NCBI GenBank assembly: GCA_030295235.1
Contig: AP026125.1
Span: 62,001 to 126,000 of the forward strand
Length of the DNA: 64,000 nucleotides
Direction of reading: 5' to 3'
DNA from: Fistulifera solaris
Lineage: Eukaryota
Shown: positions 13,203-23,194 of the stretch, one piece after another
Numbering within the stretch: position 1 is the stretch's first letter
Layout: the number at the start of each line of letters is the position of its first letter
Notes under the pieces: model-generated
What the model was told of the DNA's origin: nothing
The model's database searches: none
What the model saw: the letters and a program-made list of their open reading frames with translations, nothing else
Program-made: the position numbers and the translations under genes

Positions 13203-16200
13203 ATGTCGGATCTGAGAAATGCCGATGATCCCATCTGGATCGACGAAGTATGGCTCGACACCGTCGTCGTCGCTGGCTTGACCTGCTTCATTCTTTGTCT
13301 CATGGGTCTATCACAGGTGCGTCTTTTTGTTTTCGACACGTCAACCAACCGTCCTTCGCGTTTCTCACAACATTCTTCAACAGGTCCCCACGGCCAAAAT
13401 GGGCATACTCTACGGCGTTGTCGGAATGATTGCTCTTGTCGTAGCTTATTGGGTGGACGATACATACACATACGATGAAGGAACGTGGTTGATTGCGGCC
13501 AGTATGGCGCCCGGAGCAGTAGCTGGTCTCATCAGTGCGGTCGTCGTAGAAATGACCTCTTTGCCGGAAATGGTGGGAGCCTATAATGGATTCGGTGGTT
13601 TGGCTGCCGCCGTAGCGGGGTACGGTTTGTATTTGGATCCAGGTGCAACATTTTTAGTGCGAGACGGAATACGAGTAGTCGAACAAACGGACGAAATGTT
13701 GATTGTTCAAGCCATTGCTTTGTGGCTCAGTATTGTGATCGGTTTGATGACATTTACTGGGAGTATGGTGGCGACCCTCAAACTGCATGGAACGATTTCT
13801 AGCAAGTCGGTCATGATTCCAGCGCGTGGACTCTACACGGCGGTCATCTTCGCTGTCATGGTTGTCTTCGGCGTATTGGCCTTTGCCGGGGACCAAACAT
13901 GGAATGATCGTCAAGCCGGTATTGCCTACTTGGCCATTGTTGGAGCGGCAGCCGGCTTGTACGGATACACGGCTGTCATGGCGATAGGTGGCGGTGACAT
14001 GCCAGTTAGTATCAGCTTCCTCAATTCTTTGTCAGGATTTAGTACAACTGCTACTGGTTTCATGCTTTTCAATAAAGCACTCGTCGTTGCCGGAGCGTTT
14101 GTGGGGTGCAGCGGAATCATCTTGACGATCATCATGTGCAAAGCCATGAATCGCAATGTTACCAATGTACTGCTCGGAGGCTTCGGTGAAGGGTCTTCCT
14201 CAGAGCAAAAACAAGCAAAGTCAAAAGATGACGAGGAGGGTGACGTAACGATAGTAGAAGCAAGCGAAGTGGTGGAAACGTTAACTTCGGCCAAGTCAGT
14301 CATCATTGTTCCAGGGTATGGCATGGTACGTTTCGATTTCGTGGTATATCGTGCCTGCAAACTTGTTCCGAGCCTTTAACACAACTGCACGAATTCTTCC
14401 ATTCAGGCGGTGGCCAAAGCACAGCATGCCATTGCCGAGTTGACTACTCGTCTTCGTCGTTTGGGCATTATGGTTCGTTTCGCCATTCATCCCGTAGCTG
14501 GGCGAATGCCAGGACATATGAACGTGTTGTTGGCCGAAGCACATGTTCCATATGACATTACGGTCTCCATGGACCAAATTAATCAAGATTTCCCTTCGAC
14601 GGATGTCGTAGTCATCCTTGGTGGCAATGATATTGTCAACCCAGCGGCACAAACGGATCCCGACAGTCCCATTGCGGGGATGCCCGTATTGGAAGTGTGG
14701 AAAGCCAAAACAACGATTGTCATGAAACGAAGCCTTCGTGTCGGATACGCTGGTATTGAAAATCCATTGTTTTTGAAGCCCAACAATCGCATGTTCCTCG
14801 GGGACGCCAAAGAAAGCACCGAAAAGCTGGTCGCGTTGGTCGGTAATGTCAACAAAGATTCCGTCAGCGACACCGACGGCACCCATCTGGGAGATGAAGA
14901 GACGGCGGTTCCAAAGATATCCAAAGAAGAAAAGGAAATGCTGCAATTCGCGGAAGATTTATCCAAGTTACGAGAAGCTGTCTTTCTCAAAGTTGGTGTC
15001 ATTCGAGAAGTGGACCCAGATGAAGAAAAAAATCGCCATTGTTCCATCGGGTTGTAAAGATCTTATGAAACAAGGTATCCAAGTGTACGTGCAAAGCGGA
15101 GCTGGCGAAAAAGGACAGTTTTTCGATTCCATGTACGAATCCAACGGCGCGATTGTGCTTTCCTCCGCTCAACAAGTTCTGGACACGGTCGACATTTTGG
15201 TCAAGATTCGTGCACCCGCATTTCATCCAGACCTCGGCCAACACGAAGTTGACAGAATGTCGAACAAAACGTTAATCAGTTTCCTCGGACCCCGCACAGA
15301 AGAAGGAAAAACACTCATGGCACGCGCCGTTGAACACCAGGTCAATTTGTTGGCCGTCGATGCCATTCCCCGCATATCCCGCGCCCAGAGCCTCGACGTA
15401 TTGAGTTCGCAAGCCAAAGTCGCCGGGTACCGCGCCGTCATTCAAGCCGCGTATCAGTTGCAAAAATTCTGCAATGGTGAAATCACTTCGGCCGGCAGTT
15501 TCGAACCTTCCAAATTCTTAGTGGTGGGGGCCGGTGTCGCGGGGTTGGCCGCCATCAGCACAGCCTCCAATCTCGGCGCACACGTCCGTGCCTTTGATAC
15601 GCGATTGGAAACGAAAGAACAAGTCGAATCGCTCGGCGGACATTTTTTAGTGTTGGATTTTGGTAACGAGTCGGGTGGTGATGCGGCGGGGTATGCCAAA
15701 GTCATGAGTGATGCATTTTACGAAAAGAAATGGCCTTGTTTTTGCAACAAGCCAAAGAAGTGGATGTGATTATCACGACGGCGGCTATACCCGGTCGTCC
15801 AGCACCCGTACTGATTCAAGCCGAACACGTGAACGCCATGAAACCCGGCGGTGTCATTGTTGATTTGGCGGGTGGTAATTGCGCCCTGACTCGTCCGAAA
15901 CAAACGTATGTACACAATGGTATTACCATCATCGGCAGCGATATGACCAATCAAGCGATGAATTGGCAAGCTTCGACCATGTACAGCAACAATATCGTAA
16001 ATCTGTTTGGTATGTTGTGCAAAGATCGACAACTGAATTGGAATGCCAACGATCCGGTGATTCGTGGTATGACGTGCGTCTGGAATGGCGATATATTGTT
16101 TCCTCCTCCCGAAAGTATGACGGCGACAGCTGCCGCGCCGCAGCAAAATACTAGTGGTACCAAGAACACGACAAGCCCAGAAAGAAACCGAACAAGCCTT

Positions 16201-20500: not shown

Positions 20501-23194
20501 TGTTTTGCTCGTTATGAAGAGTTCGGTCTGGGCATGTTTTCTGCGACACAGCACCGCCGAGCTAGACTCTTTGGTTACGTCCAAGACTTTGTGCACCAGA
20601 TGGAACTATCACCACCACAGAATGATCATCTCTCGCAACTGGTTGCTCTTTTGAACGAGTGGCTAGAGATCTGTGACGAAAAGTCGGACCGATGCACATT
20701 GTTATTTGATCGTATGGCACCTTTATTCAAGTCCATATTGTCATCATCGACTGGGGCTGATTCAAAACTGATCGATTTGTTACAGAAAATATGGTCCGAA
20801 CGTGATATGTTCCCCAAACTGTCACAATGGATCTGCGGCGGTGACGGCTGGGCGTATGACATCGGTTTTGGTGGGTTGGACCATGTTGAAGCCTTTGAAG
20901 CCAACGATGTAAATGTGTTGGTGGTCGACACAGAAATGTACAGTAATACCGGTGGACAACAATCGAAAGCAACACCGGCTGGTGCAGCCGTGAAATTTGC
21001 CATGGGTGGAAAACAGCAGAAGAAGAAAAGTTTAGGCGAAATGTTTATGACATATGAACACGTTTATGTGGCATCGGTGGCGTTGCACAATTCAGCACAA
21101 GTGCTACAAGCGTTTTGGGAAGCTGATCAACATCAAGGTCCTTCGATTATTATTGCATACGCTCCTTGCATTCAGCAGGGCGTTCGACCAGCTGGCCTAA
21201 ATGATATGTACGATGAATCAAAATTTGCCGTCGAAAGCGGTTATTGGCCACTGTATCGATACAATCCAGAGCTCACGAAGCAAGGTCAAAATCCATTTGT
21301 CTTGGACAGCAAAAAGTTGCGGAAAGATGTAACGGCGTTCTTGCAACGTGAAAGTCGCTTCATCAACCTGCGGAAAAGGGATCCAAAAGTAGCTGATTCT
21401 TTGTGGGAGCAAGTAACTGCGGATGTGAACCATAGAATGGAACACTTGCAACAACTAGCTGAAGGCTACAAGAATTTCTCCCATCCTAGTGACGCGAAGA
21501 TCAAAGTCTTGTTTGCTTCAGAGACGGGGAACGCGGCTCGAGTTGCGCGTGATTTTGCTAACGCGTGCCCGGACTCCGCCACTGCATCTGCACTTGATGA
21601 TATCGATATCGACGATGACATCAACGGCAAGACAGTCGTGCTGTTTGTATCAACATGTGGACAAGGAGCGATGCCGCGAAACGGTAGAAACTTTTATCAC
21701 GAATTATGTCAGCGCACAGAGGCACTGCAAGCAGAAACGAAGTTTCTTATTTTTGGCTTAGGTGACTCTAGCTACTACTTCTACTTGAAAGCTGCCAGAG
21801 ACATTCAAGACCGTTTGATAGCGTTGGGAGCTACACAACTGTTGGACATGGGGGAAGGTGACGATGCAGCAGAAGAAGGTATGGAAGGCGGTTTGCATGA
21901 CTGGCTGGGACTTGTGTGGCCAACTTTAGAAATACCTCCACCGTCAGAGGTGCCGCATATTCAAGCCGTCAATGCCACGTTCTCGAATCGGGCTATCCTT
22001 CGTCCGGAAGAGGACAGGCACATGCTGGAACAGTACTACTATGGAGTCCATCATGCCACCAATGCTACGATTGTCAGTAATGACTTGATGTGTCGGCCCG
22101 ACTACAACCGCGATTTCCGAAGGCTTCGCTTGGCAAAAGCTAATACCGAACTTGAACATTTCCAGTTAGGGGATGCTTTGGAAATCTTTCCTCAGAACGA
22201 CCCTACACTTGTATCACAGTTCCTACATAATTACTCCCCTGATTTTGGAGAAAATACGGTGGTCAATCTCCATCAGGCTTTTGGTATTCACGGAGAGATA
22301 ACGTTGTCAACTTTGTTCACGAGCGTTTTGGATTTGTTTGGAAAGCCGACGAAACACTTTCTGCAAGAATTGGCGACATTTGCGAAGACGGAACAAGACA
22401 AGGCAATGCTTTTGGATCCGATGTACCTGAAGAAAGCTGCACAACAGACTGGGATGACGGTTGCTGACGTCTTGATACAGTTTAAAACAGCCAATCCTCC
22501 GTTGCCGGCCCTTCTCGGAATGATTCCGCAAATCAAACCACGAGCATATTCAATTGCCAGTGCTCCGCATGCCAATGCCATTGAACTATTGATTCTTATT
22601 GATACGTGGTGGTGTGACGATGGTATGAAATATGGCTTGACATGTAACATGCTTCGCAAGTTGAATTCCAGTGACACGGTCTGGTGTAGGATCCATCCAG
22701 GAAGTATGGAGCCACCGTCGCCGCAAGATCCTGTCGTATGTGCTGGCATTGGAAGTGGTTTGGCGCCGCACATGGCGTTTTTGAGGGATCGCGTACGGGC
22801 CGCCGAAGCCGGGGAACAAGTCGGTCCATTTTCTTTGTATTTCGGAAATCGCTACCGAGCCGATGAGTATCTATACGAGTCCGAATTGACTGAGTATGCT
22901 CGCAAGTACTCCGAATGGTTCCACTTGCATGTTGCCTTCAGTCGCGATGATCCGCACAAGAAAGTCTACGTACAGGATCTCGTCGGTGACACGGACGACG
23001 CAAGGCTGTATTTGCGTGACCAGCCAGGTCTCTTGTACGTTTGTGGAAACCGTCAACTGCCGAAACCATTGCAGCAGGCACTCGTTAAATCCTTTTGTCG
23101 CCCGAACTCTGAAGACGAGAGTGAAGTGTCCAAAGCCACCAAGGCCGTCGAAGACTTGTATCTTCATGGCAAAGCACAACAGGAGGTTTGGTAA
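17516..23194 (+). CDS. PNO: Pyruvate:NADP+ oxidoreductase (PFOR fused to NADPH-cytochrome P450 reductase-like module). Introns 17740-17828, 18267-18336 and 20431-20519; frameshifts at ~17683, ~18127 and ~19165
   Basis: PFOR motifs: [79 protein letters not shown]. Two CxxCxxCxxxCP ferredoxin motifs. TPP domain: [30 protein letters not shown]. Then flavodoxin ([16 protein letters not shown]), FAD (RAYSIAS) and NADP ([28 protein letters not shown]) motifs. Confidence 0.95.

Follow-up and report, generated by a model that had tools for sequence, protein, structure and literature searches.

A beta-alpha fused proton-translocating NAD(P) transhydrogenase and a pyruvate:NADP+ oxidoreductase (PNO) were found side by side in the diatom Fistulifera solaris, in a stretch of 64,000 nt of contig AP026125.1 (assembly GCA_030295235.1, positions 62,001 to 126,000), hereafter the window. 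Both proteins were predicted to face the cytosol, and our tentative reading, to which we give just under an even chance, is that during anoxia the NADPH made by PNO may be turned into NADH by the transhydrogenase in this compartment, with the linkage of the two genes being incidental. Neither enzyme is new, both carry annotations in F. solaris already, and the beta-alpha transhydrogenase (NTH) of diatoms is published (PMC7614955). The adjacency is apparently undescribed. No account of it, or of a diatom route through a cytosolic PNO and a transhydrogenase, was found in the full-text literature, in which subscription journals are mostly uncovered, and this agrees with an earlier note on this DNA, which knew of no report of the linkage. 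PNO adjacency was unmentioned in the accessible text and Tables S1 and S3 of PMC7614955.

Gene pair and spacer

Domains were called by Pfam on 148 open reading frames (ORFs) of the window, with most ORFs below 104 aa outside the scan. The transhydrogenase was located at 13203-16583 and PNO, a PFOR-flavodoxin-FNR fusion, at 17516-23194, both on the plus strand, and the distance from the transhydrogenase stop to the PNO ATG was 932 bp, so the co-oriented pair about 930 bp apart reported in the earlier note was borne out. The same note called both enzymes complete, which holds for their identity and completeness but not for the letters of the window, where six one-base frame breaks interrupt the genes.

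The spacer (16584-17515) could be divided by poly(A) and read cover into the 3' untranslated region of the transhydrogenase, an untranscribed stretch, and the promoter and leader of PNO. Four public runs (X1-X4) were placed on 11500-25000. The transhydrogenase transcript ended with poly(A) at 16747 and no cover at all was present over 16912-17362 in X3 and X4, thus the two genes give two separate transcripts. Unspliced DNA-type contigs bridged the spacer in X1 (16430-17471) and X2 (16352-17467). An element of 40 bp at 17041-17080, which contains a TGAGTCA site and has one copy in the window, is probably a dispersed short repeat with further copies elsewhere in the genome, since many unrelated X1 and X2 contigs end loosely on both sides of it; depth was also raised there in both runs. 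A non-coding block at 17153-17191 was apparently retained in the spacer of the second subgenome, as indicated by the X2 joints 16609>17153 and 17191>17438, each at depth 21.2, the letters between them being not known. A 7-codon upstream ORF was observed at 17459-17482, just 5' of the PNO start.

The upstream regions of the two genes had nine 9-mers in common against a null mean of 5.9, a count reached by 19% of 155 control windows, and nothing above chance was revealed among common promoter motifs or local repeats near the pair.

Frame breaks, splicing and transcripts

The four runs may come from the window's own strain, so they could check the assembly and not conservation; X3 and X4 were treated as RNA on grounds of splicing and poly(A), no run being recorded as RNA. 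Each run also held a second, diverged copy, and many contigs were placed at 90-95% identity. The six breaks, three per gene and mostly at homopolymer runs, lie near 15026, 15728 and 16180 in the transhydrogenase and near 17679/80, 18124 and 19165 in PNO. The frame was restored in all four runs at 15026, 16180, 17679/80 and 18124, and in all three covering runs at 19165. At about 15728 the support for a slip comes solely from homolog alignment and from the length after read-through, 1077 aa, which compares with 1078 aa in GAX19811. The six frame breaks are assembly slips. Splicing was seen at all five introns in X3 and at four in X4, and both genes were transcribed in these two runs, of which growth conditions are unrecorded and whose contigs give no expression ranking.

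The six breaks in the window letters might also suggest decaying pseudogenes. This explanation has a negligible probability, as five of the breaks were corrected in all covering runs, both genes were spliced and a full-length record of 1809 aa matched PNO; it was largely refuted on these grounds. Further indels against all four runs were observed at 23341-25000 (e.g. 23869, 23874, 24683 and 24740). Because the indels continue past PNO, the assembly of the window is indel-prone, and other genes in it that appear broken should be treated with caution.

Transhydrogenase

The transhydrogenase gene (plus strand) had three exons (13203-13316, 13384-14325 and 14407-16583) in the spliced contigs and encoded about 1077 aa, reading 1077 aa to the stop with X at the three breaks. 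Pfam matches at 13.2-16.6 kb followed the order PNTB, AlaDh_PNT_N/C and PNTB_4TM, i.e. beta then alpha, and Pfam, NCBIfam and the spliced transcript contigs gave the domain order IIbeta-III-I-IIalpha in one chain. In the PDB alignment with an E. coli-type beta chain (9l76), the equivalents of Asp213, Asn222 and Arg265 were retained, and the Rossmann and RQD-loop motifs were present. The His91 position was occupied by Asn, likewise in 39 of 41 diatom-type homologs, which we take to be a tolerated natural variant. The AlphaFold model of the closest homolog (P0001; mean pLDDT 77, pTM 0.48) contained 9+4 membrane helices, and this model together with the hydropathy of the window protein put domains I and III on the same side.

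The first exon (13203-13316) encoded an acidic N-terminus followed by the first membrane helix, which was predicted from charge and loops to be an N-out signal anchor. Only one basic residue and six acidic ones precede helix 1, no cleavable presequence was evident, and no in-frame upstream ATG was found. Acidic residues exceeded basic ones before helix 1 in all 39 scorable diatom-type homologs (41 examined). The loops after helices 1, 5 and 9 were basic, and acidic charge prevailed at the N-terminus and in the loop that follows helix 2. Since basic loops are cytosolic by the positive-inside rule, this pattern points to an N-out signal anchor, domains I and III being on the cytosolic side. Sequons for N-glycosylation ahead of helix 1 (3 of 36) were uninformative. 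The transhydrogenase is most likely an endomembrane protein inserted via a signal anchor, with its predicted nucleotide domains facing the cytosol.

The beta-alpha enzyme was widespread in diatoms, equally with PNO. Proteins of Fistulifera (GAX19811), Nitzschia, Seminavis and Chaetoceros are listed as beta-alpha type (PMC7614955, Table S3), and a Pseudo-nitzschia record (P0015) of this type was also identified.

Pyruvate:NADP+ oxidoreductase

PNO (plus strand, 1809 aa) had four exons, at 17516-17739, 17829-18266, 18337-20430 and 20520-23194 according to splicing. Pfam revealed POR_N, PFOR_II, POR, EKR, Fer4, Flavodoxin_1, FAD_binding_1 and NAD_binding_1 at 17.5-23.2 kb. The protein was 99.5-100% identical to F. 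solaris GAX22782.1, and its last-exon cluster included GAX19812.1 and GAX22782.1 of F. solaris, each of 1809 aa and 94.8% identical to one another. TIGR02176 scored 1445 bits on the matching record P0360, with a cut-off of 911, and the PDB matches were PFOR (6cin alignment) and CPR/BM3 reductase.

Motifs of a homodimeric-type PFOR were located at residues 35, 69, 117, 731, 789, 855, 1025, 1055 and 1133 of P0360, with residue labels (thiamine pyrophosphate-binding and three [4Fe-4S]) that we take from D. africanus numbering. One open frame of 902 codons spans the end of PFOR and the FMN, FAD and NADP(H) domains, which are thus in the same chain. Ser-Arg and Lys-x-Tyr motifs, presumably binding the 2'-phosphate of NADP, were present in P0360, the Lys-Tyr pattern being unmatched in the copy of the other subgenome (P0359). 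All PFOR, Fe-S, FMN, FAD and NADP motifs that were checked were found in P0360.

Thirteen residues without Arg stand ahead of the first conserved motif of PNO. The residues before this motif numbered 2-45 in all 18 full-length diatom-type PNOs and 70-80 in all seven Euglena-type ones, one N-truncated record being dropped from the comparison. No hydrophobic stretch occurred in P0360, the only ATG upstream of PNO was that of the 7-codon upstream ORF, and no further 5' exon was seen among the spliced joints. PNO looks cytosolic, with no predicted targeting presequence. PFOR-based fermentation in diatoms has been called chloroplast-associated (PMC8153729), and judging by these N-termini such a location does not fit PNO.

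PNO turned up in numerous diatoms, both pennate and centric, and none of these proteins had a long presequence. The records came from Fistulifera, Nitzschia, Cylindrotheca (CAJ1942662.1), Pseudictyota, Thalassiosira spp., Conticribra, Stephanocyclus, Cyclotella and many unnamed sources (P0098-P0115 and P0258-P0350). An older survey of four genomes reported PFO only in T. pseudonana (PMC10407231).

In the trees, built by FastTree with midpoint roots and no clade test, the diatom transhydrogenase clade was sister to a clade (P0050-P0055 and P0092) with a record of Bolivina, a foraminiferan, and the diatom PNO clade was long-branched with no clear named sister. A common origin of the two genes, for which phylogenies had been suggested in the earlier note, was therefore unsupported.

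Linkage in the two subgenomes and in other genomes

The genome of the allopolyploid F. solaris is reported to contain 9007 pairs of homoeologs, with 2441 genes left unpaired (PMC5935921). The beta-alpha NTH (GAX19811) and PNO (GAX19812) of the second subgenome bear consecutive accessions, and consecutive numbers were likewise given in supplement rows to the l-subgenome genes fso:g10622 (transhydrogenase) and fso:g10623 (PFOR-NADPH-cytochrome). Two non-homologous genes of the same pathway were thus adjacent in both subgenomes, with the linkage in the second one read from identifiers and not from coordinates or orientation.

The comparison beyond F. solaris reached Nitzschia, Thalassiosira and metagenome loci, no close naviculoid genome being among them. 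In Nitzschia inconspicua the two transhydrogenase alleles were found on contigs 3.68 and 3.62 Mb long, and the contigs carrying the two PNO alleles measured 6.36 and 6.57 Mb, so none of the two haplotype pairs shared a contig, though an additional undetected transhydrogenase copy near PNO is possible. The genes were on different contigs in Thalassiosira exigua and Thalassiosira sp. AJA248-18 as well, these contigs being just 10-30 kb long.

A scan of JGI metagenomes for PNO gave 80 loci among the matches listed, mostly bacterial PFORs with eight eukaryotic loci, and is an incomplete sample. Among the matches listed, no transhydrogenase was detected by tblastn or profile search at any of these eight loci, few of which had long flanks. 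The upstream side was clearly informative in L004 (3.7 kb, with MFS transporter genes at 651-2345 and a Thalassiosira-like PNO) and partly in L003 (1.6 kb). L003 had the most F. solaris-like PNO (72%) and no transhydrogenase in the 1.6 kb upstream, where a longer spacer would escape. The neighbours downstream of PNO in L001 and L002 were homologous neither to each other nor to genes of the window.

Among the 83 bacterial PFOR loci listed, no beta subunit was nearby and one alanine-dehydrogenase-like domain matched, giving no operon precedent. Stray diatom contigs were sought by a pattern scan of GTDB, which yielded just 11 bacterial loci, and two viral scans gave no relative. No size match was obtained between 35 transhydrogenase-bearing and 90 PNO-bearing contigs, a weak comparison because the two sets may come from different samples and products of short exons were left out. 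A full-length member can be masked by the representative of its cluster, which was the case for F. solaris, and no PNO of Seminavis was retrieved.

In the genomes and loci compared, linkage was not conserved beyond background synteny, and the adjacency is a rearrangement that predates the separation of the two F. solaris subgenomes and is absent in Nitzschia. It looks like a local, lineage-restricted gene arrangement and not a conserved cluster. Conservation of the functional cluster proposed in the earlier note, which had itself staked the idea on linkage in related diatoms, is unsupported: N. inconspicua and, more weakly, the other diatoms speak against it.

Comparison with known systems

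Euglena gracilis offers a close metabolic parallel. It has a PFOR-CPR fusion making NADPH and a membrane transhydrogenase turning NADPH into NADH in anoxia, and this conversion was reported to be indispensable for its anaerobic metabolism (Nakazawa et al. 2021, PMID 34738635); the NADPH would come from PNO. The Euglena enzymes are mitochondrial and its PNO has a presequence of 70 residues, whereas the F. solaris proteins have no predicted presequences. Identity between the Euglena PNO and the last exon of the window PNO was about 39%.

The domain order and the 9+4 helices of the transhydrogenase are like those of the beta-alpha NTH/PNT of Entamoeba, Plasmodium, Cryptosporidium and diatoms (PMC7614955). 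The Plasmodium enzyme is reported to have a signal peptide and a crystalloid or apicoplast, non-mitochondrial location, and a luminal orientation has been proposed for it (PMC7054674); unlike it, the F. solaris protein has no evident signal or transit peptide. The Entamoeba enzyme is described as vesicular or vacuolar and non-mitochondrial (PMC9040739 and PMC8887013), and the predicted cytosol-facing endomembrane transhydrogenase of F. solaris resembles it.

Cytosolic or untargeted PNOs have been reported in Cryptosporidium muris, Stygiella and Pelomyxa (PMC8051059, PMC4989108 and PMC8887013), all of which, as organism or as genus, possess a membrane transhydrogenase too, and F. solaris would share this combination. 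It differs from them as a photosynthetic, aerobic alga, and the diatom PNOs form a long-branched clade of their own. Lineage-restricted physical grouping of anaerobic-metabolism genes is reported from algae, with HYDA-HYDEF-HYDG and ACK/PTA in Volvox and the HYD cluster of Nannochloropsis (PMC4416025); unlike these, the F. solaris arrangement has two genes only, with no hydrogenase or maturases found by Pfam in the window.

Proposed coupling

In the proposed route, PNO would act as a soluble cytosolic enzyme converting pyruvate and CoA into acetyl-CoA and CO2, and the electrons would pass via three [4Fe-4S] clusters, FMN and FAD to NADP+; its activity and O2 sensitivity would be expected from family membership. 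The transhydrogenase would enter the endoplasmic reticulum (ER) by its N-out signal anchor and reside in a membrane of the secretory pathway, with the ER, the outer plastid-ER membrane, a vesicle, the vacuole and the plasma membrane as candidates. Its NAD(H) and NADP(H) domains would lie in the cytosol, and both enzymes would probably draw on one cytosolic NADPH pool. A shared nucleotide pool, implied in the earlier note, is indeed possible, both proteins being predicted to face the cytosol.

In dark anoxia the transhydrogenase would convert the NADPH from PNO and NAD+ into NADP+ and NADH, with one proton leaving the cytosol per hydride transferred. Such coupling in anoxia is plausible, with Euglena as precedent, and would require only a shared compartment, not gene linkage. 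Cytosolic nitrate reductase or fermentative dehydrogenases might serve as NADH sinks. Diatom nitrate reductases prefer NADH. A nitrate reductase gene (fso:g15686) exists in F. solaris, its GO label reading NADPH, and the cytosolic enzyme is a candidate sink; in dark anoxia diatoms are reported to reduce stored nitrate in the cytosol (PMC10407231 and PMC3660698).

For the reverse direction, NADPH/NADP+ must exceed NADH/NAD+ about 10-fold against 60 mV, 107-fold against 120 mV and 508-fold against 160 mV, and because of this large gap an NADH sink would be needed. The chief gain would be redox rebalancing. It is doubtful whether an endomembrane gradient could drive ATP synthesis, which makes 'energy-conserving' the weakest part of the first reading; energy conservation by the pair is weakly supported, as nothing in its favour was found and a large redox-ratio gap would be necessary.

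Alternative explanations

Several points weigh against the cytosolic coupling with incidental linkage. The NADH/NAD+ ratio is usually high in anoxia, which without a sink works against the reverse reaction. Charge, length and composition, and not a trained predictor, were the basis for judging targeting, and the N-termini of three PNOs (P0107, P0109 and P0221) were net basic. The beta-alpha order does not fix topology, because the Plasmodium enzyme with its signal peptide is proposed to face the lumen. The beta-alpha record P0015 exists in Pseudo-nitzschia, a genus for which no PFO was reported in the four-genome survey (PMC10407231), so the transhydrogenase has roles independent of PNO. Finally, the chance that the named partner is one of the two neighbours of a gene was p = 0.00017, or 0.0017-0.0035 for 10-20 plausible partners, and this low prior chance is suggestive in favour of selection more than incidental linkage allows; the p-value is suggestive only, because the pair was picked post hoc from about 11,000 neighbour pairs.

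The Pseudo-nitzschia record also favours an explanation without coupling, which we hold to be rather unlikely though of real weight. The transhydrogenase would then run forward, from NADH to NADPH on a proton gradient of V-ATPase or V-PPase, in support of biosynthesis under oxic conditions or of redox defence, or would serve an organelle; the NADPH of PNO would be used directly, and the adjacency would be coincidence. Forward NADPH supply is the usual role and was proposed for the Plasmodium beta-alpha enzyme (PMC7054674). The genes are unlinked in N. inconspicua, the sharing of promoter words was within chance and the other neighbours are unrelated genes, all of which suits this explanation. 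It is opposed by the reverse role reported in Euglena, which has PNO, by the predicted cytosolic orientation of both proteins and by the low a priori chance of adjacency.

A selected, co-regulated module of two genes, arisen in Fistulifera or a wider naviculoid clade and comparable to the hydrogenase clusters of Volvox and Nannochloropsis, is unlikely. The linkage was retained in both subgenomes, between which PNO differs at 5% of its residues, but neighbours would be expected to stay linked between subgenomes so close. A TABASTA promoter motif is listed for both l-subgenome genes, yet it is common (1588 l-subgenome genes) and absent 5' of the window transhydrogenase. The apparently conserved non-coding block in the spacer, the direct metabolic fit and the anaerobic gene clusters known in algae (PMC4416025) argue for such a module, and the separate transcripts and the L003 locus, where no transhydrogenase lies in 1.6 kb upstream of a PNO 72% identical to that of F. 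solaris, argue against it; there is no evidence yet for selection on the adjacency. A bolder version is quite improbable, in which NADPH from PNO would be turned into NADH by a vacuolar or other endomembrane transhydrogenase pumping protons out of the cytosol, the NADH would feed nitrate reductase, and the two genes would have been joined under selection in Fistulifera and perhaps in other benthic naviculoids.

The earlier note had drawn on anaerobic cestode mitochondria for the transhydrogenase and on Euglena for PNO; taken literally, this analogy would have a mitochondrial PNO and an inner-membrane transhydrogenase build proton-motive force. The Euglena PNO is mitochondrial, and certain proteins of mitochondrion-related organelles are reported to be imported without presequence. 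For F. solaris this analogy is very improbable, as neither protein has a mitochondrial or plastid presequence by composition, no upstream in-frame ATG could supply one, the spliced joints gave no additional 5' exon, and the acidic transhydrogenase N-termini are conserved across diatoms.

Other genes in the window

By Pfam, the remaining neighbours of the pair in the window were unrelated genes, and no match to HydA, ADHE, ASCT, PFL or RquA was obtained among the 148 scanned ORFs. A tandem gene pair on the minus strand at 29894-32523 was 51% identical over 270 aa and had no Pfam match. A fragmented reverse-transcriptase-like element was located at 33100-37000, with a weak RVT_1 match at 35079-36059. 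At 46764-63800 about five related genes formed a tandem array; four of them gave leishmanolysin-like (Peptidase_M8) matches, and a RecA gene (51957-53303, minus strand) was situated inside the array.

Implications for diatom metabolism

Diatoms are reported to survive dark anoxia in sediments, reducing stored nitrate to ammonium (PMC10407231 and PMC3660698), and their anaerobic enzymes are poorly mapped. PNO is far commoner in diatoms than the four-genome survey implied. The adjacency of the two genes is a hint and not the discovery, and Cas9 editing has been reported in F. solaris (PMC13276009). If the bolder version with nitrate reductase were true, it would give a proton-pumping step for diatom nitrate respiration (dissimilatory nitrate reduction to ammonium) in dark anoxia. 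If PNO and the transhydrogenase are coupled in the cytosol, they would provide a concrete route for pyruvate oxidation and NADH supply in anoxia.

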